From assembly GCA_033762295.1 (NCBI GenBank), contig JANRLW010000057.1, positions 1 to 64,000 of the forward strand: a stretch of DNA of 64,000 bases, written 5' to 3'. The translations under genes were made by a program, and so were the position numbers. This DNA is from Capsulimonadales bacterium (lineage in GTDB: Bacteria; Armatimonadota; Armatimonadia; Armatimonadales; Armatimonadaceae). This document shows positions 3,039-61,228 of this stretch, piece by piece (position 1 is the stretch's first letter; each line of letters starts with the position of its first letter). Below the pieces are notes generated by a model. It did not search any database and was not told where the DNA came from. It worked only from the letters and a program-made list of their open reading frames with translations.

Positions 3039-3641
3039 TTAGAAACGATAGCCAACCGCTACGTTGAAGCCGCCCGGATTGCGCTCGTTGATTTCGCTGA
3101 TAAAGGTATAGTCCAGTTCGCCGAACAGCCCCTGACCGGACTCGACGCCCGCCAGCAGTTTGCCGCCGAACTTGGTTTCGTCGTCCGACAGCGACAGCGT
3201 CGCGCCGCCCACCCGGGTGGAAGCCTTCGAGTTCACGAAGTAGACGCCCAGGCCCACACCACCGTACACGCGGGTTGCCGAAGTGACCGGCGTAAAGTAA
3301 TAACGCGCCGTCGGACCGAGGCCGACGTAGGAGAGACGCAGGGTTACTCCGTCACGCTTCTTCGAACCCGTCGCGCCATCCAGATACGCGCCGACAATGA
3401 TCGGATTGGCCAGATTGGTCTTCAGGAAATCGTAGGACACTCCGTAGCTGAAGAGGGTGCTCCCGATCTCGTCCTTCACATCCCCGTCGCCCGGGAAAAA
3501 CGCGCCCAGCTTGACCCGCCAGGGCTTTTCCGGCTTGGCCGTCGGCACCGAACTATCCGCCTGCGCGTTCGCCGCCGTCGCCATTCCCGCACCAAGACCG
3601 GCCACGAGAAGGGCGGCCAGCCAGAACTTTGCACGTACCAT
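3039..3641 (-). CDS. Outer-membrane beta-barrel protein, paralog 5
   Basis: Signal peptide, KPWRVKLGAFFP, GGKLLAGVE, ends VGYRF. Confidence 0.85.
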   Translation of the reverse strand: MVRAKFWLAALLVAGLGAGMATAANAQADSSVPTAKPEKPWRVKLGAFFPGDGDVKDEIGSTLFSYGVSYDFLKTNLANPIIVGAYLDGATGSKKRDGVTLRLSYVGLGPTARYYFTPVTSATRVYGGVGLGVYFVNSKASTRVGGATLSLSDDETKFGGKLLAGVESGQGLFGELDYTFISEINERNPGGFNVAVGYRF

Positions 3642-3717
3642 GATAAAGTTGCTCCTGCACTGAGAGATTCATTCCCCCCTGCGGCATCTTTCATCCTCTC
3701 AGGGGGCCGCCTTCTAT

Positions 3718-3742
3718 GACAGTGATTACCAGGAAAAGTTTC
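3718..3742 (-). promoter_or_regulatory. Putative ECF-sigma promoter GAAAC-N17-GTC
   Basis: Minus strand GAAACTtttcctggtaatcactGTCATA upstream of paralog 5. Confidence 0.5.
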
Positions 3743-3785
3743 CGTCGGCCTGTCGTTTCCGAAACATCACGGCCAAAATTGCGGA

Positions 3786-3820
3786 AAACCGGCGGAAGAG
3801 TGGATCTTTTCCGCCGGTTT
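3786..3820 (-). terminator. Rho-independent terminator after paralog 6
   Basis: AAACCGGCGGAAGAG-loop-TCTTTTCCGCCGGTTT hairpin. Confidence 0.65.
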
Positions 3821-3843
3821 CGTACAGGTGAACGCAGATTACG

Positions 3844-4401
3844 TCAGAATCGATACCCGAGCGCCACGTTGAAACCGTTCGGAGTGGTCCCGCGAACCGA
3901 CCCGATCAGGGTGTAGTCCGCTTCGGCGAAAAACCCGTTGTTAAATTCGAGACCCCCGAGGAGTTTTCCCCCGAGACGGAAGTCGTTATCCGTGTCTCCG
4001 CTTCCCGTGCTATTCAGGAGATAGATTCCGAGACCTCCGCCCGCGTAGGTTCGCACCGGATCGACGACCGGGTTGAAGTAGTACCGTCCCTGCGCGCCGA
4101 GCGAGTAGTAGGTAATACGCGCACCGCTCCGCGAACGGGTCGTTCCGTCAAAATACCCGCTATAGACGATCGGGTTGACGGCGGTTGTTTTACCAAAGTC
4201 GTAGGATGCGCCGTAGCTGAAGAACGTTTTTCCGAATACATCGGTCAGGTCACCGTTTGTCGGGAAAAACGCACCCAGTTTTACGCGCCAGGGACGATCC
4301 ACCGGCAATGCGGGCCGCACCGGATCCTGCGCGCGCGCCTGTTCGGAAGCGACGACGACAAGTCCCGCTACTGCGGCGGCGACAAGGAATTTCATTTTCA
4401 T
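3844..4401 (-). CDS. Outer-membrane beta-barrel protein, paralog 6
   Basis: Signal peptide, RPWRVKLGAFFP, GGKLLGGLE, ends LGYRF. Confidence 0.85.
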   Translation of the reverse strand: MKMKFLVAAAVAGLVVVASEQARAQDPVRPALPVDRPWRVKLGAFFPTNGDLTDVFGKTFFSYGASYDFGKTTAVNPIVYSGYFDGTTRSRSGARITYYSLGAQGRYYFNPVVDPVRTYAGGGLGIYLLNSTGSGDTDNDFRLGGKLLGGLEFNNGFFAEADYTLIGSVRGTTPNGFNVALGYRF

Positions 4402-4458
4402 TCGAACTCTCCCCGGATTCGTTTGCCGTGCGTTCGAGCACGAGTTTGACGATCACAA

Positions 4459-4483
4459 GACGAGAGTTCGAAACGCGTGTTCC
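4459..4483 (-). promoter_or_regulatory. Putative ECF-sigma promoter GGAAC-N17-GTC
   Basis: Minus strand GGAACacgcgtttcgaactctcGTCTTG upstream of paralog 6. Confidence 0.5.
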
Positions 4484-4534
4484 GCGCTATGGACCGATTC
4501 GTTGACGGGAAATAGCCAGATTACCGGGAAACGC

Positions 4535-51967: not shown

Positions 51968-53074
51968 CTATTCCATCGAACGGTGGAGAACGACACCGGC
52001 GACGGCGAAAAGGACGATCGGAAGCCAGGCGGCGACGATGGGCGGGATGCCTCCGGCGATGGCGACGATCCGCAGGGTGAGCAGGACAATCAGGGTGAAG
52101 ACCACAAGGATCAGGGAGAGCAGGATGCCGGTGAAAGCGCCCGTACGCGCGAACCGAAGCGACAGCAGCGGCGCGACAAAGGCGAAAAGAATGCCCTGTA
52201 GCGGGAACGATAACTTCAGATGGGCATCCGTCTCGAACTCCCGCGCCAGTTTCGCATTTCCGTACCCGACCTGTCTTTTCGCCTCCCGGTACAGTTCGTC
52301 CAGCGAGTAGGTGAAGGAAGCCGTCAGGGGTTGCCCGACACCGACCGCCGTGATCAGGTCCAGGTTCAGGACCAGGGTGCCGTCCTGCGCCCGCCCGTCC
52401 AGTTCGGATTCCCCCCGGCCTCCGAACCGGTGGTAGACGACATTTTTCAGTCGCCAGATACCGCCGACATACTCCGCGGATTCGGCGGTCAGGATCGTCG
52501 GATAGGCTTTCGCGGCGGTCCCGTCGACCGGGGTCCGCACGAGAACGACCTGCCGGATGACGCGCTTTCCGTCGGGCCGCCGGTCGGCGGCGGCGAACGT
52601 GACCACGAAATCGTCGGTCCGGATCCGGCGCGACGCGTCCGCAGGGTTGGTGGGCAGCGCATCCAGAACGGCGAGGGTGTTCTGCTGTTCGCGCCAGGCC
52701 CAGGGAGTCACCTTTTCGAAAACAAGCAGATTGAGCAGGCTGACGGCGGCGCCGAACAGGTAGACCGGAAGAAAAATCCGCCGCAGGGGCATTCCGACCG
52801 ATCGCAGGACGGTGATTTCGTTATCCCGCGCGAGCCGACTGACCCCGAGACTGATCGCCAGGGTCAGCGCGACCGGCAACGCCATGACCAGAACCGTCGG
52901 AATGTTCAGCAGCAGGAAACGGCTCACCAGAGCCACCGGCCACTTTTCCCGGAGGATGGTTTCCAGATACTTGTAGAGCGTGTTGCCGACCAGCATCATC
53001 AGGAAGGCGATGACGCCGATAAAAAAAGGGATCAGCAGTTCGCCGAAGACCAGGCGATCGCTCCGTTTCCACAT
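51968..53074 (-). CDS. LptF/LptG-family LPS export permease
   Basis: SRLARDNEITVLRSVG, 3+3 TM with periplasmic beta-jellyroll, AAWLP. Confidence 0.88.
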   Translation of the reverse strand: MWKRSDRLVFGELLIPFFIGVIAFLMMLVGNTLYKYLETILREKWPVALVSRFLLLNIPTVLVMALPVALTLAISLGVSRLARDNEITVLRSVGMPLRRIFLPVYLFGAAVSLLNLLVFEKVTPWAWREQQNTLAVLDALPTNPADASRRIRTDDFVVTFAAADRRPDGKRVIRQVVLVRTPVDGTAAKAYPTILTAESAEYVGGIWRLKNVVYHRFGGRGESELDGRAQDGTLVLNLDLITAVGVGQPLTASFTYSLDELYREAKRQVGYGNAKLAREFETDAHLKLSFPLQGILFAFVAPLLSLRFARTGAFTGILLSLILVVFTLIVLLTLRIVAIAGGIPPIVAAWLPIVLFAVAGVVLHRSME

Positions 53075-53123: not shown

Positions 53124-53903
53124 TTACGTCGCGCAGGTCTGCGACACGCGGATATCGCGAACGCGCAGCAGTCCGCCGCCGCGCCGGATCAGTTCCGAAA
53201 CCGTCACCGGAATCAGTCCTCGGGCGCGGACCTGTGTGACGATCCGGGGCAACGCGGCATAGGTCGCCGGAATTCCGTCATGGAGCAGCACGATGCCGCC
53301 GGGGGTGATGTCGCGCAGGACCAGCTGCTCGATCCGGGCCGCCGTCCGCCCGATCTTGTAATCCGCCGGGTCCGCGCTCCAGAGAATGTTCGCGTAGTTA
53401 TTGGCTTCGATCACCCGCTGAACCGCCGTGTTGTACTCTCCTCCCGGGGGACGGACCAGTCGGGTGCGCACTCCGAACATCGATTCCAGCAGGTCGCGCG
53501 TCGAATTGAGTTCCGGCGCGACTTCGTCCAGCGGGATTTGCGGGAGGCGATAGTGGTGGTAGGTATGGTTGCCGATCTCGTGGCCCTCGAGCGCCATCCG
53601 CTCGACAATCGCCGGGTACCGGCGAATCTGTTGCCCGACGAGGAAGAAGGTGGCCGGCAAACTCAGACGGCGCAGTATTTGGAGCAGTTCGAGCGATTTG
53701 GCGCCATGCGGACCGTCATCGAACGTAAAGGCGACGTACGGGAGGGCCGGGTCCCCGACGATGACCTTCAGGGATCGGATGCCGCGCTGTCGTTCCACAT
53801 CATCCTGGAAGGCGAGTTCGACCAGGCGGCGATACTCGGTTTCCACCGCCTCCGGGTGCGGCGGTTGAGTCCATCGACCGTTAGGAGCAGGTGAGGTACG
53901 CAT
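53124..53903 (-). CDS. Polysaccharide deacetylase (CE4/NodB)
   Basis: TFDDGP, HEIGNHTYHH, RPPGG, IVLLHD. Confidence 0.93.
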   Translation of the reverse strand: MRTSPAPNGRWTQPPHPEAVETEYRRLVELAFQDDVERQRGIRSLKVIVGDPALPYVAFTFDDGPHGAKSLELLQILRRLSLPATFFLVGQQIRRYPAIVERMALEGHEIGNHTYHHYRLPQIPLDEVAPELNSTRDLLESMFGVRTRLVRPPGGEYNTAVQRVIEANNYANILWSADPADYKIGRTAARIEQLVLRDITPGGIVLLHDGIPATYAALPRIVTQVRARGLIPVTVSELIRRGGGLLRVRDIRVSQTCAT

Positions 53904-54092
53904 AGTTACCGAAAGGTTTTAACCTCCGTCTCCCGAAATTGCCTCGAAATAGCGGTAAAATGGAGTACCGGCGGTCCTGCGCAGCAGGCGACCGCCGTCA
54001 GTGTTTTCCCCGATGACGCATGGGAAAAACCGCTTCGGTTCCTCCGTGTGAGACCGGTCGCTTCTTTCCTGACGTCTCAATATATCAACAGC

Positions 54093-55328
54093 ATGGGTAC
54101 TTCGACAAGGTTTTTCGCGGCTTTTATACGTTGGGCCGGAATCCGGGACCGTTCGGTTTCGGAACGCTCCCTGCCGCCGCGAGAACCCGGAACGGTGGCG
54201 GACGTCATCCGCACTCGCGTCTCCCTCTACCCCGGCACGCCGCTGGCCGATGCGGCGGAGATTTTCCGCACCGGAACCGATCGTACGGTCGCGGTCGTCG
54301 CCCCGACCGGCCAACTCCTCGGACTCCTTCGGGAAGCCGAGATCGCCCGACATCTGAGCGAACGTCCCCCCCATGAACGCCCCGCGCTTCTGCGAACGCC
54401 GGTCGGGGAACGGATGAGCGCCCCAACGGCGACGCTTCGTCCCGATATGTCTCCAGACGAGGCATTGAGGATACTGCAGGAGTCGTGCCGGGAGGTCCTT
54501 CCGGTAGTGACTCCGCACGGTATTTTTCTTGGCATGGTTTCGGGCGGCGATTTTTTGTCGGAGATGGCGCGACCGCTTCGCCCGCCGATGATCGGCGGCC
54601 TCGCCACGCCGCTCGGCGTTTACCTGACGACCGGAAACGTCACCGGCGGCGTCGGCCACGTCGCGCTGGCGCTGACCGGTCTGGTGTTTTTCTGCCTGCA
54701 CCTGGCCGCGTTCGGTCTGGCAGCGCCCGCGAACGCGGTCGTCGCCGCTCTGCCCGCCTTTGCCCGCCCGGCGGCGGACACCCTGATTTTCCTGCTCGTC
54801 CGTATCGGTCTTCTGCTGGCCGTCCTCCGCCTGACGCCGATGGCCGGCTACCATGCGGCCGAACATCAGGTGGTCCATGCGATCGAACGCGGTGAGCCGC
54901 TGACCGTGGAGGTCGTCCGTTCCATGCCGCGCGTTCATCCCCGGTGCGGAACGAACCTGGTGGCCGGTGCGCTCGTCGTTTCCGTGACCGGCGCGATCTG
55001 TCAGCCGCTTATGGGCAGTCTGGGGTACGTGCTGGGCGGAATCGCCGCCCTGGCCGTCTGGCGCGATGTCGGGGCCTGGCTCCAGCTAAAGTTCACGACC
55101 CGTCCGGCAAGCCCTCGTGAACTGGAAAGCGGCCTCCGGGCCGCCCGGGAGGTGCTGGATCGACACACCGCCGATCCGCGCCCGGTCGCACCGATCCGAC
55201 GTTTCGGAAATATGGGATTTCTTCCCCTGTTCGGCGGTTTTCTTCTCGGCGGCGCTCTGACGTTCGGTCTCTCCTTCCGAATTCCCGCGTTGCGCGAGCC
55301 GCTACTCTTCTTTTTTTCGGGATGGTAA
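54093..55328 (+). CDS. CBS-pair + DUF1385 membrane metallo-protein
   Basis: N-terminal CBS pair; IGGLA.P.GV, YHAAEHQVVHAIE, RVHPRCGTN. Confidence 0.8.
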   Translation: MGTSTRFFAAFIRWAGIRDRSVSERSLPPREPGTVADVIRTRVSLYPGTPLADAAEIFRTGTDRTVAVVAPTGQLLGLLREAEIARHLSERPPHERPALLRTPVGERMSAPTATLRPDMSPDEALRILQESCREVLPVVTPHGIFLGMVSGGDFLSEMARPLRPPMIGGLATPLGVYLTTGNVTGGVGHVALALTGLVFFCLHLAAFGLAAPANAVVAALPAFARPAADTLIFLLVRIGLLLAVLRLTPMAGYHAAEHQVVHAIERGEPLTVEVVRSMPRVHPRCGTNLVAGALVVSVTGAICQPLMGSLGYVLGGIAALAVWRDVGAWLQLKFTTRPASPRELESGLRAAREVLDRHTADPRPVAPIRRFGNMGFLPLFGGFLLGGALTFGLSFRIPALREPLLFFFSGW

Positions 55329-55396
55329 CGCGCGGGACCGGGGACAGGTTCCGCTCTGGTGAAAAGGAATCGCGTCAAACGCGAGAACGAGTATTC

Positions 55397-56776
55397 ATGG
55401 TTTCGACAACATCGACCGAATCTGTGGCAGGCGTCGTCGGACGCACCGCACGGACGCTCACCACGGCGACCGTGGAGATACTGCACGGCATCACCCGGCG
55501 ACCGCCGCCGTCCGGCGCGAAGGTGCTCCTGGAATATGTGTCCGCGAATCCGAACGGACCGATCACCGCGATTCACGGACGGGGCGGAGTCCTCGGCGAT
55601 ACCCTGGCCGCCCTCCTGGCCGCGACCGGCAGCGACCCGACCCGCGAATTTTATGTCAATGACGCCAACTCCTTCCGTCAGATGCGCCAGTTCGCCCGCG
55701 CCGTTCTGCACCGGTACCGCCAGATGTTCGGGCAGGAGTCCTGGAACGGCAGCGCTCTCCCGGTCGATGCCGAGGGTTACCCGGAAGAGTATGTCACCCA
55801 TACCACGCAAAAACTGATCGAGGCGGTCGGCGACCGCTTTCTCGGACGGAACGACGACGAGACGCTTCTTCCGCTTCAGGAGACGACGGCCCGGATCATC
55901 CGCCAGGAACAGGAGGAGGACCTGACCGCCCTCGGCATCCGGTTCGATCGGTGGTTCTCCGAAAGTCGGCTCCACGCCGACGGGGCGATCGAGCGGATTC
56001 TGGAAAGTCTGCGCGCTTCCGGGCACACCTTCGAACAGGGAAGCGCCCTCTGGCTCCGGTCCACCGATTTCGGCGATGAAGCGGACCGCGTTCTGCTGCG
56101 CGCCGACGGCTCGCCCACCTACCTTGCCGGCGATCTCGCCTACCATGCCGACAAATTCGATCGGGGCTTCGATTACCTGATCGATCTCTGGGCCAGCGAT
56201 CACGCCGGTTACATCGAGCGGACCCGCGCCGGTCTGGCGGCGCTCGGCTACGATCCGAAAAAACTGACCGTCCTGCTGGTCGGACCGGTGCGTCTCCTGC
56301 GCGATGGGACGGAAGTGAAGGCAATGCGCACGGACGGGCTCCTTGAGGTGATTACCCTGACGGAACTGCTGACCGAACTCTCGCCGGAGGTGGTCCGCTG
56401 GACCCTGTGCGACGCCTCGTCGGAGGAACCGCTCGATCTGGATGCCGACCGTCTGCGCCGTCCCGACATGCCCGCCTCGCTGGAAAAGGTTCGCTATGCC
56501 CGCTCCAGTTGCCGCTGGGCGGCGGAGAACGCCGGGGACGCCGTCGATCCGGAGGTGTTCTCCGAACTGACGAAGTATCCGGAGGTTCTGCGGGAAGCCG
56601 CCGACCGGCTCACGCCGAACCGGCTGACCGCCTATCTGGCGGAACTGTCCGATCGGTGGGTCGACTCGGTCCGGTCCGGGAACCGACCGGCGGAACCCGT
56701 GACACAGGCGGTGACGGCCGTTCTCGATCAGGGTTCGAAATTGCTGGGAATCGACATAAAGGATGACAATGCGTAG
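55397..56776 (+). CDS. Degenerate arginyl-tRNA synthetase paralog (catalytic core, no N-terminal domain)
   Basis: EYVSANPNGP, REFYVND, FDRWFSE, LRSTDFGD..DRVLLRADGSPTYLAGDLAYH..KF.RGF; HIGH and KMSK motifs altered. Confidence 0.85.
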   Translation: MVSTTSTESVAGVVGRTARTLTTATVEILHGITRRPPPSGAKVLLEYVSANPNGPITAIHGRGGVLGDTLAALLAATGSDPTREFYVNDANSFRQMRQFARAVLHRYRQMFGQESWNGSALPVDAEGYPEEYVTHTTQKLIEAVGDRFLGRNDDETLLPLQETTARIIRQEQEEDLTALGIRFDRWFSESRLHADGAIERILESLRASGHTFEQGSALWLRSTDFGDEADRVLLRADGSPTYLAGDLAYHADKFDRGFDYLIDLWASDHAGYIERTRAGLAALGYDPKKLTVLLVGPVRLLRDGTEVKAMRTDGLLEVITLTELLTELSPEVVRWTLCDASSEEPLDLDADRLRRPDMPASLEKVRYARSSCRWAAENAGDAVDPEVFSELTKYPEVLREAADRLTPNRLTAYLAELSDRWVDSVRSGNRPAEPVTQAVTAVLDQGSKLLGIDIKDDNA

Positions 56777-59297
56777 TCTTTGCCGGTTATTGATCGTCAC
56801 CGTTCTTGCCTGTGGTCTGCTTCTGCCCGTCAACGCGAAACCGATCGTCACACGCGGCATCTATACCGATGGCAGGGGAGGCGCGCACCCCTGGTATATC
56901 AATGAAGCGCATCAACTGATTTGGGAAGACCGGCCCTTCGTCCCGGTCGGCGGGCGTTTTCAGGCCCGCTCCTGGGTTTCCAATCCGACCGGGAGCGACT
57001 TCGAAGCGGATGCCGCCGCTCTGAAAACCCTGAAGCGGTGCGGGGTCACCGATATCTATCTTCAGCCGGCGCGGGGCGGACTGCTCTCCGTGCCGCCGAC
57101 CGCCCTTCAGCGGCTGATCGATCTTCTGGATGCCGAAGGATTCACCTACGGCATCTCCATCAACGATGCCCCGGCGGAGCTTCTCACCGGTTACGAGATC
57201 CGTCCGGGCAAGTACCGCCACCCCGTTCCGGAAGGCGGCGGACTGCTCCGTTTCCCGATACGGAACGCCGTCTCCGCCCTCTATTTCCAGGTCAGTGAAA
57301 GCGGTGATGTGATTACGACCGGCAAGGCGACGCCGGTGGATGAGGGGATGCGGGTCGTCCCTTCGAACGTCCCGGGGCGCAATATCGTCTTTCTCCTCCC
57401 GCAGCATGTCCATTTCAACGCCCGGTCGATCGGAGTGCCGAATGTCTGGGAGGGATTCGACCAGTACCGGGACGATCTGATCGCTCTTTTCCGCAAGGTA
57501 AAACTCGGGCCGGGCTTCCGGTTCTTTGCCGACCCGCTCTCCTCCGATCTGCGGTTGACCGATGACATCGACGTTTTCGTTCCGACCAATGTCTCGTTCC
57601 GGATCGAATGGAGCGAATGGCTGGGTCGACGCCACCGAAATATCGACAACCTGTTAAACGCCTGGGGAGTGAGCGATCGGGAGTGCCGGGATTTCCGTGA
57701 CGCGGCGGACCTGCTGCCGCTCTGGTGGGGAGGCAAAGGCGTCGCCCTTCTCTACAACCCCGACACGGAAAAGACGTATCGTGTCAACACCGCGCTGTCC
57801 TCCTACTGGAAGGATCTGACCGCGTTCAAAATCGAATCGATCCGCCGTTATATGAACGATCTGGCGACCGTTCTGAAAAAGGCGGTCGCCGATGTGCCGG
57901 TCGTCTATCGCACCACCGGTTACTCGGCTCTCCATACCGCGCTTCCGGCCAACCGAGGATTCGACGGTATCGGCATCGAGGCGTTCGGGCGCGGCAGCGA
58001 GCTGGTGACGCAGAGCGCAGGGTATGCTTACGCGCATACGGCGGAAGCGCCCAAGACGATGTGGCTTCCGGTGCTGGCGACCGGGGATGCCGACCCGGCG
58101 CGTAAGGTGGCGCGCGGTTACGCGTCCCGCGCGGCGTTGCATGCCGATCTGGACTGGCTGCGGGAGATCGGCGCACGCGGATTCTTCGTCGACGGCGTCC
58201 GTATCCTCGATACCGACCGAAAAATGTACGATCTCTCGGAAGCGGAGGATCAGCTTACCTGGCTGTCGGACTACGCGCGCGTCCTGGCCATCACCGGCGT
58301 GAGCGGCGCGACGGCCCTGCCGCGCGCGGTTTTCTACCCGCGCGGACTGGCGCTGGCGTCGGTACGCCCGCTGGCCGAGGGCGGATGGTGGCTCCCGACC
58401 GAACGGCCCCATGTTCCGTATGATTTCGGCGCCGCCGGAAAAGCCTATGCGCTGGCCGAGCCGGAACGCGGGACGGTCTACTATCTCTGGAACCCTTCCG
58501 GCAAACGCCGTATCCGCCTCCGGATTCCGAAGGCCGCCCGCGCGCCCGGTGCGCCGGCGCTCGCCTGGAGTCCCTCGGCGGAAGGCAACGTCAAGGGCGA
58601 TATTCTGACCATGACCATCGGGCCGGACCCGGTCCGCCTGATCAATTATCCGAGTGTTCCCGTGCCGCTGGACGCCTTCAAGGAGTATCTTGACGAAGGG
58701 GCGCGCATGGTCGCCGCAATGAAGAAGGCGGAGATTCCCGAAGGAGCGCGCTACCAGCTGTCGCTGGTCGGCACGGAACGACGCTTCAATGTCGATAATC
58801 CCCTGCAAAGCCTGATGGAGATTCAGCGGGTTGTCCAGGAGATGCGCGAAAAACTCCGTCCCTATGCCTGGATCGAGGCCGAACGCGCCGCCGCGCAGAA
58901 CTTTGACGGCGTCATGGAACGGCTCGGGGCCAGCGGAAACCTGGTCCTTTCCACCGAGGAGCGTCCGGCCGGAGCGGCCCCGGCCAACGCCGCCTACACG
59001 ATCCAGATCACGACGCCCGGCAACTACACGGTCTGGGTCGCCGCCTCGCCGGCGTCCCTCTTCTCCCTGCGTCTGAACGGCCGTCCGCTGCTCGACGAGG
59101 CCGTCCTCGCGACGCCGATCGGGAGTCGCTACGCCGACGGCCAGCTGGTCTGGCAGCGGTTGGGCAATGCCACCCTTCCGCGCGGCGTCCATACCCTGGA
59201 AGTTCGCGCCGAGACTGCGGCCAAGCTGGATGTGATCCTTCTGACCCGTGAACCGTTCGAACCGGACGGCCCCAATCCCCCCGCCCTGAAACTTTGA
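56763..59297 (+). CDS. Large secreted protein, possible TIM-barrel glycoside-hydrolase-like domain plus C-terminal beta-sandwich
   Basis: Signal peptide; GH42-like spacing motif (WL..RH.NID.L..AWG); C-terminal GNYTVWV...GVHTLEV...LDVILLT. Confidence 0.6.
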   Translation: MTMRSLCRLLIVTVLACGLLLPVNAKPIVTRGIYTDGRGGAHPWYINEAHQLIWEDRPFVPVGGRFQARSWVSNPTGSDFEADAAALKTLKRCGVTDIYLQPARGGLLSVPPTALQRLIDLLDAEGFTYGISINDAPAELLTGYEIRPGKYRHPVPEGGGLLRFPIRNAVSALYFQVSESGDVITTGKATPVDEGMRVVPSNVPGRNIVFLLPQHVHFNARSIGVPNVWEGFDQYRDDLIALFRKVKLGPGFRFFADPLSSDLRLTDDIDVFVPTNVSFRIEWSEWLGRRHRNIDNLLNAWGVSDRECRDFRDAADLLPLWWGGKGVALLYNPDTEKTYRVNTALSSYWKDLTAFKIESIRRYMNDLATVLKKAVADVPVVYRTTGYSALHTALPANRGFDGIGIEAFGRGSELVTQSAGYAYAHTAEAPKTMWLPVLATGDADPARKVARGYASRAALHADLDWLREIGARGFFVDGVRILDTDRKMYDLSEAEDQLTWLSDYARVLAITGVSGATALPRAVFYPRGLALASVRPLAEGGWWLPTERPHVPYDFGAAGKAYALAEPERGTVYYLWNPSGKRRIRLRIPKAARAPGAPALAWSPSAEGNVKGDILTMTIGPDPVRLINYPSVPVPLDAFKEYLDEGARMVAAMKKAEIPEGARYQLSLVGTERRFNVDNPLQSLMEIQRVVQEMREKLRPYAWIEAERAAAQNFDGVMERLGASGNLVLSTEERPAGAAPANAAYTIQITTPGNYTVWVAASPASLFSLRLNGRPLLDEAVLATPIGSRYADGQLVWQRLGNATLPRGVHTLEVRAETAAKLDVILLTREPFEPDGPNPPALKL

Positions 59298-59401
59298 TCG
59301 CCGGGTTCCGCCGCCCCCTCACCGCTCCGTCCGCCCGAGGAGCGGGGGCGGTTCGGGTATAATCGCTTTCGATCCCTTGAAAGATTCGGAGACAAAGCAT
59401 C

Positions 59402-61228
59402 ATGTCCCAGCAACTCTGGCAACCGCTTGCCGCCCAGCTACGGGCCGATTCGATACGCTGCACCACCGCCGCCGGAAGCGGCCATCCGACCTCCGGCATG
59501 AGCGCCGCCGACCTGATGGCGGTCCTGCTGACCTCCTACCTGAAATACGACTTCTCCCATCCTCAGCATCCCAACAACGACCACCTCATCTTCAGCAAAG
59601 GCCATGCCTGCCCGGTGCTCTATGCGATGTACAAGGCGGCCGGCGCGATGACGGATGACGAGCTGCTGTCTCTCCGACAGTTCGGCTCGATCTGGGAAGG
59701 GCATCCGACGCCGCTGATCCCGTTTGTCGATGCCGCCACCGGGTCCCTGGGTCAGGGTCTGCCGATCGGCGTCGGGGTCGCTCTGGCCGGTAAGTATATC
59801 GACAAACTGCCCTACAAAGTCTGGGTCGTTTGCGGAGACTCCGAAATGGCGGAGGGGTCGATCTACGAGGCGCTGGAAATCGCGGCCCATTACGAACTGG
59901 ACAACCTGATCGCGATTGTCGATGTCAACAAACTCGGTCAGCGAGGCGAAACGGCTCTGGGTCACGATATGGACCGCTACCGCGCCCGGGCCGAGGCGTT
60001 CGGCTGGCAGGCGATCGTCATCGACGGGCATGACCTGGCGGCGATCGATGATGCGTACACCCGGGCCCTGTCGGCGAAACAGCCGGTCGCGATCCTGGCG
60101 AAGACCGACAAGGGACATGGCGTCTCCTTCCTCTCCGGGGTTCCCGGCTGGCACGGCAAGTCGCTGAAACCGGAGGAGGCCGAGAAAGCCCTGGCCGAAC
60201 TGGGCAATCCGTCCGGTGATCTGCGGATCGACGTGCAAAAGCCGGAGGATCTGCAGCCCGCCCCGCTGCCGTCGGCGACCGAAGTGACCTTCCCCGACTA
60301 CGGGCCGGGCGACAGCGTCGCCACCCGTCAGGCATACGGCGAAGCCCTGAAGGCGCTGGGCGCGGCACGGGCCGATCTCTTCGCCGTCGACGCCGAGGTT
60401 TCCAACTCCACCTTCGCCGAAACGTTCAAGAAAGCCTACCCGGATCGCTTCTTCGAGATGTACATCGCGGAGCAGATCATGGTCTCGGTCGCGCAGGGTC
60501 TGGACGTTCGCCACAAGGTCGCTTTCGCCTCGACGTTCGCCGCCTTCTTCTCGCGCGCCTACGATCAGATCCGTATGGCGGCCGTCTCCCGCGCCAATCT
60601 TCGCCTGGTCGGATCTCATGCCGGTGTCAGTATCGGCGAGGACGGGCCGTCCCAGATGGCGCTGGAAGACCTGGCGATGTTCCGGTCCGTCTTCGGAAGC
60701 GCGGTGCTCTACCCGTCCGATGCCGTCTCGACGGTCCATCTGATCCGGGCCATGGCCGAGCGCAAGGGCATCTCCTATCTCCGCTCCACCCGCGAGAAAA
60801 CCCCGGTGCTGTACGGGCCTGAGGAGCGGTTCCCGATCGGCGGTTCCAAAACGCTCCGCACCTCGGACAGCGACAAAGCGACGATTATCGCGGCGGGCAT
60901 CACGCTGCATGAGAGCCTGAAGGCGGCGGATGAACTGGCCGCTTCCGGGACCCGCGTTCGCGTCATCGACCTGTACTCCGTGAAGCCGATCGATGCGGAG
61001 ACGATCCGCCAGGCGGCGCGGGAAACCGGCCATCTGATCGTCGCCGAGGATCACTGGGCGGAGGGAGGTATCGGGGATGCCGTCCTGGCCGCGCTGGCGG
61101 AGACGCCCGACCTGAAACCGAAGTTTACCCATCTGTGCATCCGCGAAATGCCCCGATCGGGCAAGCCGAACGAACTGATGGACGCTTACGGCATCTCGGC
61201 GAAGCACATCGCCGAAGCCGTGCGCTAA
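59402..61228 (+). CDS. tkt: Transketolase
   Basis: SGHPTS, FSKGHA, TGSLGQG, GDSEMAEG, HAGVSIGEDGPSQ. Confidence 0.95.
   Translation: MSQQLWQPLAAQLRADSIRCTTAAGSGHPTSGMSAADLMAVLLTSYLKYDFSHPQHPNNDHLIFSKGHACPVLYAMYKAAGAMTDDELLSLRQFGSIWEGHPTPLIPFVDAATGSLGQGLPIGVGVALAGKYIDKLPYKVWVVCGDSEMAEGSIYEALEIAAHYELDNLIAIVDVNKLGQRGETALGHDMDRYRARAEAFGWQAIVIDGHDLAAIDDAYTRALSAKQPVAILAKTDKGHGVSFLSGVPGWHGKSLKPEEAEKALAELGNPSGDLRIDVQKPEDLQPAPLPSATEVTFPDYGPGDSVATRQAYGEALKALGAARADLFAVDAEVSNSTFAETFKKAYPDRFFEMYIAEQIMVSVAQGLDVRHKVAFASTFAAFFSRAYDQIRMAAVSRANLRLVGSHAGVSIGEDGPSQMALEDLAMFRSVFGSAVLYPSDAVSTVHLIRAMAERKGISYLRSTREKTPVLYGPEERFPIGGSKTLRTSDSDKATIIAAGITLHESLKAADELAASGTRVRVIDLYSVKPIDAETIRQAARETGHLIVAEDHWAEGGIGDAVLAALAETPDLKPKFTHLCIREMPRSGKPNELMDAYGISAKHIAEAVR

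Follow-up and report, generated by a model that had tools for sequence, protein, structure and literature searches.

Why should a bacterium that encodes a canonical arginyl-tRNA synthetase (ArgRS) also maintain an ArgRS-like gene that has shed much of what is needed to handle tRNA? The question is raised by an open reading frame on the forward strand at positions 55397–56776 of the window, the 64,000-nucleotide stretch of Capsulimonadales bacterium contig JANRLW010000057.1 analysed here. The frame runs uninterrupted for 459 codons to a TAG stop, as an earlier note made from the letters of this stretch had reported, and encodes an ArgRS-like protein, P0001. An alternative upstream ATG at 55322 would give a product of 484 amino acids. 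The 459-residue form is preferred, because its N-terminus, MVS(T/S)..T, is common to P0001 and the homologues P0002, P0003, P0004 and P0009, and because the 25 additional residues of the longer version are not conserved in P0002. Upstream lies a gene for a membrane protein with CBS and DUF1385 domains (54048–55328, +), which neighbours type A argS, the form native to this phylum, phylum-wide in conserved synteny. Downstream is a second conserved neighbour, encoding an 844-residue protein of no Pfam family (56763–59297, +); from its ATG to the end of the ArgRS-like stop codon the two frames share 14 nt. Matches in a promoter and terminator scan of 53800–59500 were no more numerous than in shuffled sequence.

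Pfam searches of P0001 detected tRNA-synt_1d (PF00750; 36.1 bits, residues 41–327) and part of DALR_1 (27.1 bits, residues 386–419), with only positions 36–69 of the 117 in the profile covered. No Pfam match to the Arg_tRNA_synt_N or Add1 domain (PF03485) was found. Against the argS model TIGR00456 the protein scored 178.3 bits, and 162.4 bits in the genome search, in both cases below the cut-off of 261.65. Identity with NrtL was ruled out by a score of 25.5 bits against model NF045898, which has a cut-off of 340. A phmmer comparison with canonical ArgRS gave an E-value of 3.9e-48. The AlphaFold2 model of P0001 was confident (pLDDT 91.7, pTM 0.91), residues 310–314 of the KMSK loop being the sole stretch with pLDDT below 50, and it matched the Campylobacter jejuni ArgRS structure 3FNR with a TM score of 0.81–0.83. 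The likeness to ArgRS is therefore not a chance one. MshC structures appeared among the distant fold matches of the model, at ranks 34–43.

The earlier note had described the gene as an ArgRS paralog and raised the possibility of a canonical argS elsewhere in the genome. Such a gene is present on another contig (G000:C117:42795-44561) and scored 435.9 bits against TIGR00456; its product carries HVGH, a lysine before HIGH, YIQYTHAR and APERM. A second ArgRS above the cut-off was located on another contig in 28 of the 32 genomes of the window's family (f1). The twelve close orthologues of this second form, type B, that were extracted share 56–72% identity with the C117 protein; 11 genomes of f1 supplied them, together with one (G039) of the sister family f2. 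The type A gene fell below the cut-off in 19 genomes, 18 of which have another ArgRS above it, the exception being G026, an assembly that is 93% complete and in 660 contigs. In f2, by comparison, type A is the sole match above the cut-off in 25 of 29 genomes. The order polysaccharide deacetylase, CBS-DUF1385, type A ArgRS and 844-residue protein recurs in both families, and the CBS-DUF1385 gene is immediately upstream on the same strand in f1, f2, f5 and f7, with type A either working or degenerate. By position the window gene is the orthologue of the type A argS native to the phylum, and not a fresh duplicate. Because it occupies this conserved locus, it is the original, and the canonical copy the newcomer or alternative. 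The description as a paralog was thus half right: the gene derives from ArgRS and, given the C117 argS, is not the housekeeping copy, but it is no side-copy.

To characterise what has been lost and kept, homologues were divided into a degenerate clade that shares the losses of P0001 (36 rows) and working type A enzymes (48 rows), both sets being taken from a rapidly built LG+G4 tree in which branches are long, and nine intermediate rows being assigned to neither. Profile alignment with hhalign placed the arginine-binding residues D118, N123, Y313, D317 and R324 of Escherichia coli ArgRS at E46, N51, Y242, D246 and K253 of P0001. E46 (55532–55534) corresponds to D118, which contacts the guanidinium group, and Y242, D246 and K253 lie in the helix that recognises the arginine side chain (YLAGDLAYHADK; 56120–56155). 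E46, S49, R62, Y242, D246, K253 and H269 were identical in all 36 degenerate and all 48 working rows, in keeping with the earlier statement that the amino-acid pocket is kept. E. coli Q341 was placed on the variable A266 (glycine in working type A), a mapping of low confidence. The core motifs EYVSANP, TYLAGDLAYH and SDHAGY are also retained, again as first described. H60 and D268 were found in 34 and 32 of the 36 degenerate rows respectively, and since these residues are conserved together with R62 and H269, ATP chemistry may persist in P0001. According to PMC3956977, the D118A and D317A substitutions abolish arginine binding by E. coli ArgRS, arginine is bound without need for tRNA, and its activation requires bound tRNA.

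The KMSK position in P0001 reads K308-A-M-R-T312 (56318–56332), so that R311 stands in place of the loop lysine. This reading, too, agrees with the earlier note, and the loss extends to the whole clade: the lysine was present in none of the 36 degenerate rows, 20 of which have arginine at position 311 (the K-A-M-R of the window included), and in all 48 working rows. The same 0/36 and 48/48 split was obtained for the loop pattern [SGMA]KRxG. Position 308 was lysine or arginine in 33 of 36 degenerate rows, and P0001 and P0002 both keep K-x-x-R, but neither the length nor the sequence of the loop is constant among the degenerate copies. No lysine was found at G54, the HIGH-loop lysine position, in either the 36 degenerate or the 48 working rows. 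The HIGH position itself reads T57-A-I-H60 (55565–55576), as reported, but divergence here was ruled out as a sign of lost function. Working type A enzymes, sole copies among them, read TVAH or TVAG, and TAIH is therefore uninformative; the earlier caveat that HIGH might diverge lineage-wide was correct, and counting TAIH as a loss was not.

The remaining losses fall in the parts that handle tRNA. Residues 1–40 (55397–55516) form a short N-terminal linker with a predicted helix at 10–31, compared with a median of 121 residues before the catalytic core in working relatives; this fits the absence of PF03485 and the claim that the N-terminal tRNA-binding domain, here the Add1 domain for the tRNA D-loop, is missing. 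The anticodon-binding (DALR) domain, residues 359–459 (56471–56773), is shortened and relaxed, with 100 residues against a median of 133, about 33 fewer. The QYAHAR motif in it is degenerate, MPASLEKVRYARS being read at the position of NPVYYVQYAHAR, and P0001 ends ...IKDDNA, without APERM. All three features of this domain had been noticed at the outset, and the C-terminal pattern P-x-[RKA]-M was absent from the entire degenerate clade (0/36, compared with 44/48 in working type A). Conservation in degenerate relative to working rows followed the same division. The ratio was 0.86–0.98 over the Rossmann-fold catalytic core (residues 41–306, 55517–56314; PF00750), reaching 0.98 in the arginine-pocket helix and 0.97 in the second half of the Rossmann fold, and fell to 0.71 in the stem-contact part, 0.64 in the KMSK loop and 0.57 in the anticodon-binding domain. 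The strongest constraint was on buried pocket residues, and gained or shifted constraint was detected at nine positions only.

The degenerate clade spans at least eight genera. For five pairs within it, NG86 dN/dS was 0.08, 0.16, 0.21, 0.18 and 0.14, compared with 0.04–0.20 for pairs of full-length type A genes; these values refer to relatives in the clade rather than to the window gene's own branch, and dS of about 1–1.7 is partly saturated. With this spread and these ratios in its relatives, the gene is not a strain-specific neutral duplicate, an outcome that the earlier note had allowed for. The nearest relative of P0001 is P0002, with 58% identity. A metagenome scan, from which 80 loci were kept, yielded no closer full-length relative, the best matches showing 48% identity across 261 residues and, in a fragment of 73 residues, 67%. 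Across 53 genomes every match but one was free of internal stops; the copy in G029 has an in-frame TAG. An alignment of 58 rows, 26 of them from outside the degenerate clade, contained 28 invariant columns.

The same reduction has occurred more than once. Type A proteins that lack the KMSK motif and keep the pocket were also found in G045 and G048 and in families f3, f5, f7, f18 and f28, and a second ArgRS was present in every examined genome of this set. The tree requires at least five changes of loop state, and a single origin was rejected by the AU test (lnL difference 386, p 1.5e-5). The pocket has thus been kept in at least four to five independent lineages. Lasting selection combined with an intact pocket points to a non-translational job for these proteins.

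On balance, and with modest confidence, we take P0001 to be a selected, non-charging, arginine-binding pseudo-synthetase left from the ancestral type A ArgRS, with a probable role as sensor or regulator. The type B enzyme, encoded on C117 in this genome, carries out tRNA charging in this Armatimonadota family. The type A copy then lost what charging requires: Add1, which recognises the D-loop of tRNA; the KMSK-loop lysine, with no HIGH-loop lysine to compensate; and the conserved motifs, some 33 residues and C-terminal APERM of the anticodon-binding domain. Purifying selection has meanwhile held the Rossmann core, all mapped arginine-contacting residues, H60, R62 and D268-H269. Judging from the identity of these residues, P0001 probably still binds L-arginine, for which ArgRS does not need tRNA, and it may bind an adenine nucleotide as well; it would make no Arg-tRNA. 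Such a pseudo-enzyme could act as an arginine sensor or, like HisZ, as a regulatory subunit.

The earlier note had offered an arginyl ligase alongside an arginine sensor. P0001 would then remain an enzyme that activates arginine, or uses Arg-AMP or Arg-tRNA, and passes the arginine on, either to some other acceptor or, under relaxed recognition, to tRNA-Arg, much as GluQRS, EpmA and MshC act as ligases. The conservation of the entire active-site shell (H60, R62, D268, H269), the basic residue at position 308 in most copies and the arginine at 311 in 20 of them are as such an enzyme would have them, and dN/dS matches the low values of working enzymes. Known ligases derived from synthetases keep a KMSK-type loop, however, while the degenerate clade has a variable one. 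We regard the ligase as unlikely, and as the weaker half of the original suggestion, because the loop lysine is gone in 36 of 36 rows and no HIGH-loop lysine replaces it. Activation by ArgRS also depends on bound tRNA (PMC3956977), and P0001 has lost Add1 and belongs to a clade in which constraint on the stem-contact and anticodon-binding parts is relaxed. A purely structural role, in which arginine binding would be irrelevant and P0001 would serve as subunit or chaperone of the CBS-DUF1385 protein, of canonical ArgRS or of another complex to which the ancestral enzyme already belonged, seems to us somewhat more unlikely again. Gene order speaks for it, in that the CBS-DUF1385 gene directly precedes type A in four families and the degenerate copy in f28 adjoins the canonical ArgRS gene. 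Yet the neighbourhood is identical where type A is an ordinary enzyme, so that the adjacency may be inherited gene order, and the CBS-DUF1385 gene is not adjacent in G006, G010, G020 and G138. Constraint that is strongest on buried pocket residues, with gained or shifted constraint at nine positions only, also speaks against it.

The least probable of the alternatives, in our estimation, is that a redundant gene is decaying slowly towards eventual loss, with selection acting only against a harmful misfolded product. Within the family a graded series runs from full length through truncated copies and copies without the insertion domain to no match, and with the query used no type A copy was matched in eight of ten genomes of genus g6; families f11 and f22 are also counted among those that have lost the relic. 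These observations and the TAG in the G029 copy suggest that the protein is dispensable in some lineages, and slow decay fits them too. Branches of degenerate copies are about three to five times as long as those of the sister family, and type A is 38–47% identical between genera; for the type B proteins of those genome pairs the figure is 62–72%. Against decay stand the low dN/dS in all five degenerate pairs, the intact frame in all matches but one, the 28 columns invariant over 58 rows, and the pocket retained in at least four to five independent lineages.

A more specific proposal, which we offer tentatively and consider rather doubtful, is that in Armatimonadota the type A ArgRS does a second job besides charging tRNA, one that depends on arginine, as a candidate arginine sensor or as an arginine-gated subunit acting with the co-transcribed CBS-DUF1385 protein. 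Each time another ArgRS took over charging, the gene would have been pared down rather than deleted, with the arginine-binding core left in place, which would explain the independent arrival at the same outcome at least four to five times. Its candidacy as a sensor derives from the lack of a detectable ArgR in these lineages: TIGR01529 had no match in any of the 61 genomes of f1 and f2, and ArgR was equally absent in f2, where type A is a working enzyme. P0001 is a concrete candidate arginine sensor for a phylum of which 61 genomes were searched without a match to ArgR. If the second-job proposal is true, P0001 would be the founding example of an "ArgZ-like" family of pseudo-synthetases.

The non-charging synthetase relatives HisZ, GluQRS, EpmA and MshC each exposed unexpected biology. 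To our knowledge, no family has been described in which the ArgRS catalytic core and its arginine pocket are retained and the parts that bind tRNA shed, and none was found in the full text of open-access papers and preprints. In one review (PMC9437257) the term "ArgRS" does not occur and "arginyl" occurs once, within a reference; the AARS Online paper has ArgRS in tables only. The present case is a clean one, with an ancestral locus identified by synteny, intermediates in related genera and independent recurrence beside a second ArgRS, and it therefore provides a natural experiment on why a synthetase is kept once charging is removed. Such relic genes carry the label "arginyl-tRNA synthetase" in public records, which would mislead in genomes where the relic alone is assembled.

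P0001 shares with canonical bacterial ArgRS (C. jejuni 3FNR, E. coli ArgS) the fold, the arginine contacts and the combination of Rossmann core and helical C-terminal domain. It differs in lacking Add1, the loop lysine and APERM, in its short anticodon-binding domain, in falling below the TIGR00456 cut-off and in not being the only ArgRS of its genome. The non-canonical duplicated LeuRS of archaea, for which a role outside protein synthesis has been proposed (PMC9437257), is a parallel in another enzyme and another domain of life. DALRD3 and NrtL (NF045898) are described as ArgRS-derived and non-catalytic, as P0001 probably is, but they have dropped the catalytic core and kept the anticodon-binding domain, the opposite of what is seen here. 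GluQRS/YadB, EpmA and MshC are truncated synthetase relatives with non-translational roles beside a canonical enzyme. They are active, and keep the motifs for ATP activation including a KMSK-type loop, whereas the clade of P0001 has lost the loop lysine throughout. HisZ, the HisRS-like regulatory subunit of ATP phosphoribosyltransferase and partner of HisG, has a synthetase core, does not charge tRNA, coexists with the real synthetase and regulates through its amino-acid site. P0001 resembles it as a derivative of a synthetase core that has lost charging motifs, belongs to a clade under purifying selection and is accompanied by a canonical synthetase for the same amino acid. The two differ in synthetase class and amino acid, and in origin, the gene for P0001 being the displaced original rather than a duplicate.

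The ORF at 55397-56776 (+) consists of 459 codons followed by TAG, with no interruption, as the earlier note had reported. An alternative ATG at 55322, overlapping the stop codon of the upstream gene as ATGGTAA (55322-55328), would add 25 residues. The closest homologue, P0002, shows no conservation of these residues, and the N-terminus MVS(T/S)..T of the window protein (P0001, used for residue numbering) is common to the homologues P0002, P0003, P0004 and P0009; the start at 55397 was therefore preferred. The annotation of P0002 carries a similar MVT... extension; the upstream gene has a conserved ...GW* end, and the extension is probably an artefact of it. In Pfam searches, residues 41-327 of the window protein matched the class I ArgRS catalytic domain (36.1 bits) and residues 386-419 a fragment of the DALR anticodon-binding domain (27.1 bits); there was no match to the N-terminal ArgRS domain. 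The core is preceded by 40 residues and the C-terminal domain has 100 (medians in working relatives, 121 and 133, respectively), in agreement with the missing N-terminal domain and shortened anticodon domain described previously. The motif readings made at that stage also held: the HIGH position is T57-A-I-H60, the KMSK position is K308-A-M-R-T312, MPASLEKVRYARS stands where NPVYYVQYAHAR is usual, the terminal APERM is absent, and EYVSANP, TYLAGDLAYH and SDHAGY are retained. Structure prediction, a proposed check, gave a confident AlphaFold2 model (58-row alignment; pLDDT 91.7, pTM 0.91), in which the sole stretch with pLDDT below 50 is residues 310-314, in the KMSK loop. The top structural match was C. 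jejuni ArgRS (3FNR, TM 0.81-0.83), and other ArgRS structures came next.

The window protein scored 178.3 bits against the NCBIfam argS equivalog (TIGR00456), below the cut-off of 261.65. When a canonical argS was sought elsewhere in the same genome (5.16 Mb, 132 contigs, 94.5% complete), as had been suggested, a second match was found on contig C117 with 435.9 bits, above the cut-off; its translation contains HVGH with a lysine just ahead of it, FSMRKG, YIQYTHAR and a terminal APERM. We refer to the window gene's kind of ArgRS as type A and to the canonical kind on C117 as type B. The search of related genomes covered 32 of the window's family (f1) and 29 of its sister family (f2), 61 in all. 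Type A was present in 29/29 f2 genomes and was the sole match over the cut-off in 25 of them. Of the 32 f1 genomes, 28 carry a second ArgRS that scores above the cut-off and lies on a different contig; the others (G004, G019, G022 and G026) are 78-93% complete. Twelve extracted close type B orthologues, from 11 f1 genomes and G039 of f2, share 56-72% identity with the C117 protein, and in a phylum-wide sample such orthologues (58-74% identity) occurred in 6/6 f1 and 0/7 f2 genomes. In 19 related genomes type A scores below the cut-off; 18 of these contain another ArgRS that exceeds it, and the remaining one (G026) is a fragmented assembly. A third ArgRS kind (515-536 bits to TIGR00456, approximately 34% identical to type B) was observed in the f2 genomes G042, G045 and G048 (loci L034-L036); the type A beside it is degenerate in G045 and G048 and intact in G042.

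Homologues of the window protein were of two sorts, short proteins of 428-486 aa, of which P0002 is the closest (58% identity), and full-length ArgRS of 551-590 aa, several of them publicly labelled Armatimonadota, with 36-47% identity. In f1 and f2 genomes alike, genes for a polysaccharide deacetylase (-) and a CBS+DUF1385 protein (+) precede the type A ArgRS gene (+), and that for an 844-aa protein (+) follows it; this order holds for both full-length and reduced type A. It places the window gene at the native argS locus. The description of it as an ArgRS paralog stands in that it is derived from ArgRS and a second argS is present, but it is a displaced native argS and not a side copy. Directly upstream lies a gene for a 426-aa membrane protein with CBS and DUF1385 domains and a weak DUF6391 match (54048-55328, +), which in families f1, f2, f5 and f7 lies next to type A argS in the same orientation. 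This adjacency may reflect a functional link, or gene order that was simply inherited. In f5, serS lies upstream of the CBS+DUF1385 gene. The gene for the 844-aa protein (56763-59297, +) shares 14 nt with the end of the ArgRS-like ORF, from its own ATG to the ArgRS-like stop. The protein has a hydrophobic N-terminus, matched no Pfam family, and has conserved counterparts (25-53% identity) downstream of type A argS in f1, f2 and f7. The LptF/LptG permease (51968-53074, -), polysaccharide deacetylase (53124-53903, -) and transketolase (59402-61228, +) are ordinary neighbours.

A quick maximum-likelihood analysis (99 rows) grouped the window protein with P0002 (SH-aLRT 100) within a 36-row degenerate clade (99), which nests in the f1 type A clade (99), where the basal members (G003 and G014) are full-length. 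This clade was compared with 48 working type A rows, leaving out nine intermediate rows (G002, G013, G048, P0016, P0021, P0024, P0028, P0031 and P0032). Residue equivalences were taken from a profile alignment to E. coli ArgS (D118 = E46, A121 = S49, N123 = N51, K126 = G54, H129 = T57, H132 = H60, R134 = R62, Y313 = Y242, D317 = D246, R324 = K253). PMC3956977 reports that in E. coli ArgRS the guanidinium is held by D118, Y313 and D317, with D118 braced by R324, that arginine binding is abolished by D118A and by D317A, and that arginine is bound without tRNA. E46, S49, R62, Y242, D246, K253 and H269 are present in 36/36 degenerate and 48/48 working rows, and H60 in 34/36 compared with 31/48. 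Thus the arginine pocket is kept, as had been claimed. Position 51 is N in 22 and D in 12 degenerate rows, and N in all 48 working rows.

The window gene has lost the modules and the lysine on which canonical charging depends. The loop lysine is present in 0/36 degenerate rows (R in 20) and 48/48 working rows, the [SGMA]KRxG loop likewise in 0/36 and 48/48, and the C-terminal P-x-[RKA]-M in 0/36 and 44/48; the Q-Y-x-H-A-R motif, essentially invariant in working type A, is itself degenerate in the clade. Lysine never occurs at position 54 in either set, which matters because some ArgRS reportedly carry a compensating HIGH-loop lysine at the equivalent position. Of 23 type A proteins scanned with Pfam, 9 matched the N-terminal domain; it is missing from the 13 reduced f1 proteins and from that of G048 (f2). 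Mean conservation in degenerate relative to working rows was 0.98 for the Arg-pocket helix, 0.97 and 0.86 for the second and first Rossmann halves, 0.71 for the stem-contact region, 0.64 for the KMSK loop, 0.57 for the anticodon-binding domain and 0.48 for the N-terminal linker. The HIGH position reads T-V-A-H in working type A enzymes. In those of the f2 genus g14 (loci L017-L028 and L030-L031, e.g. L021 in G034 and L018 in G036) it reads T-V-A-G, without any histidine and with the SKRKGN loop kept; nearly all of the 18 g14 genomes have type A as their sole ArgRS (G039 also has type B). Divergence at HIGH is therefore uninformative on function, and the caveat that it may be lineage-wide was right.

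Across the phylum, searches detected type A in 128 of the 151 genomes sampled. Loss of the loop lysine with the pocket kept has evolved repeatedly: type A proteins lacking this lysine and keeping E46, Y242, D246, K253 and H269 also occur in G045 and G048 (f2) and in families f3, f5, f7, f18 and f28, and every such genome has a second ArgRS. On a tree of 114 rows, with the N-terminal part and loop columns removed, the loop state requires at least five changes. That the 55 loop-less rows had a single origin was rejected by an AU test (lnL difference 386, p 1.5e-5), with the caveats that the trait itself served to delimit this group once the tree had been seen and that long branches are involved. 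In f28, the KMSK-less type A gene (approximately 412-434 aa) lies about 1.4 kb from a canonical ArgRS gene on the same strand (L104, G131:C149, 228-1958 and about 3311-4528, both -; likewise in G107:C150).

The reduced type A is under purifying selection across genera. As proposed alongside the tree, dN/dS was estimated (NG86), using pairs from degenerate-clade genomes, the nearest relative found for the window protein being 58% identical. Ratios were 0.08 (G021/G012), 0.16 (G001/G021), 0.21 (G001/G018), 0.18 (G009/G017) and 0.14 (G006/G020, the most reduced form, approximately 385 aa and without the insertion domain). Comparison pairs gave 0.04 (G036/G040) and 0.13 (G041/G053) where type A is the sole ArgRS, 0.20 for full-length type A beside type B (G003/G014), and 0.23 for G042/G048, of which G048 is N-truncated and without the loop lysine. 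Because dS was approximately 0.8-1.8 these ratios are approximate, yet far from 1. Type A evolves more quickly than the average of its neighbours. In comparisons between genera its identity is 38-47%, and identical genome pairings give 62-72% for type B, 40-52% for the 844-aa protein and 58-68% for the deacetylase. Matches to type A were stop-free in all but one, a reduced g6 gene (L087, G029:C374) with an in-frame TAG in its N-terminal part, which may be a true pseudogene; its C-terminal two-thirds are open and keep the pocket motifs. Slow decay of a redundant gene might account for the reduction series, which together with the lack of a match in 8 of 10 g6 genomes indicates that the protein is dispensable in places, but both the dN/dS values and the recurrence speak against decay, and we disfavour it.

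From its sequence, the window protein is predicted still to bind arginine and no longer to charge tRNA, and we infer a non-translational role. H60, R62 and D268/H269 are also kept, as residual ligase activity would lead one to expect, but ArgRS requires tRNA for arginine activation, according to PMC3956977, and the catalytic lysine is gone; such activity is therefore less likely. ArgR (TIGR01529) was not detected in any of the 61 f1 and f2 genomes (G000-G060) by a search that was positive in 9 of 14 control reference genomes, which is circumstantial support for an arginine sensor. No ArgRS-core paralog was found described in open-access papers and preprints. By analogy with HisZ, our preferred reading is a pseudo-enzyme with an arginine-sensing or regulatory role.
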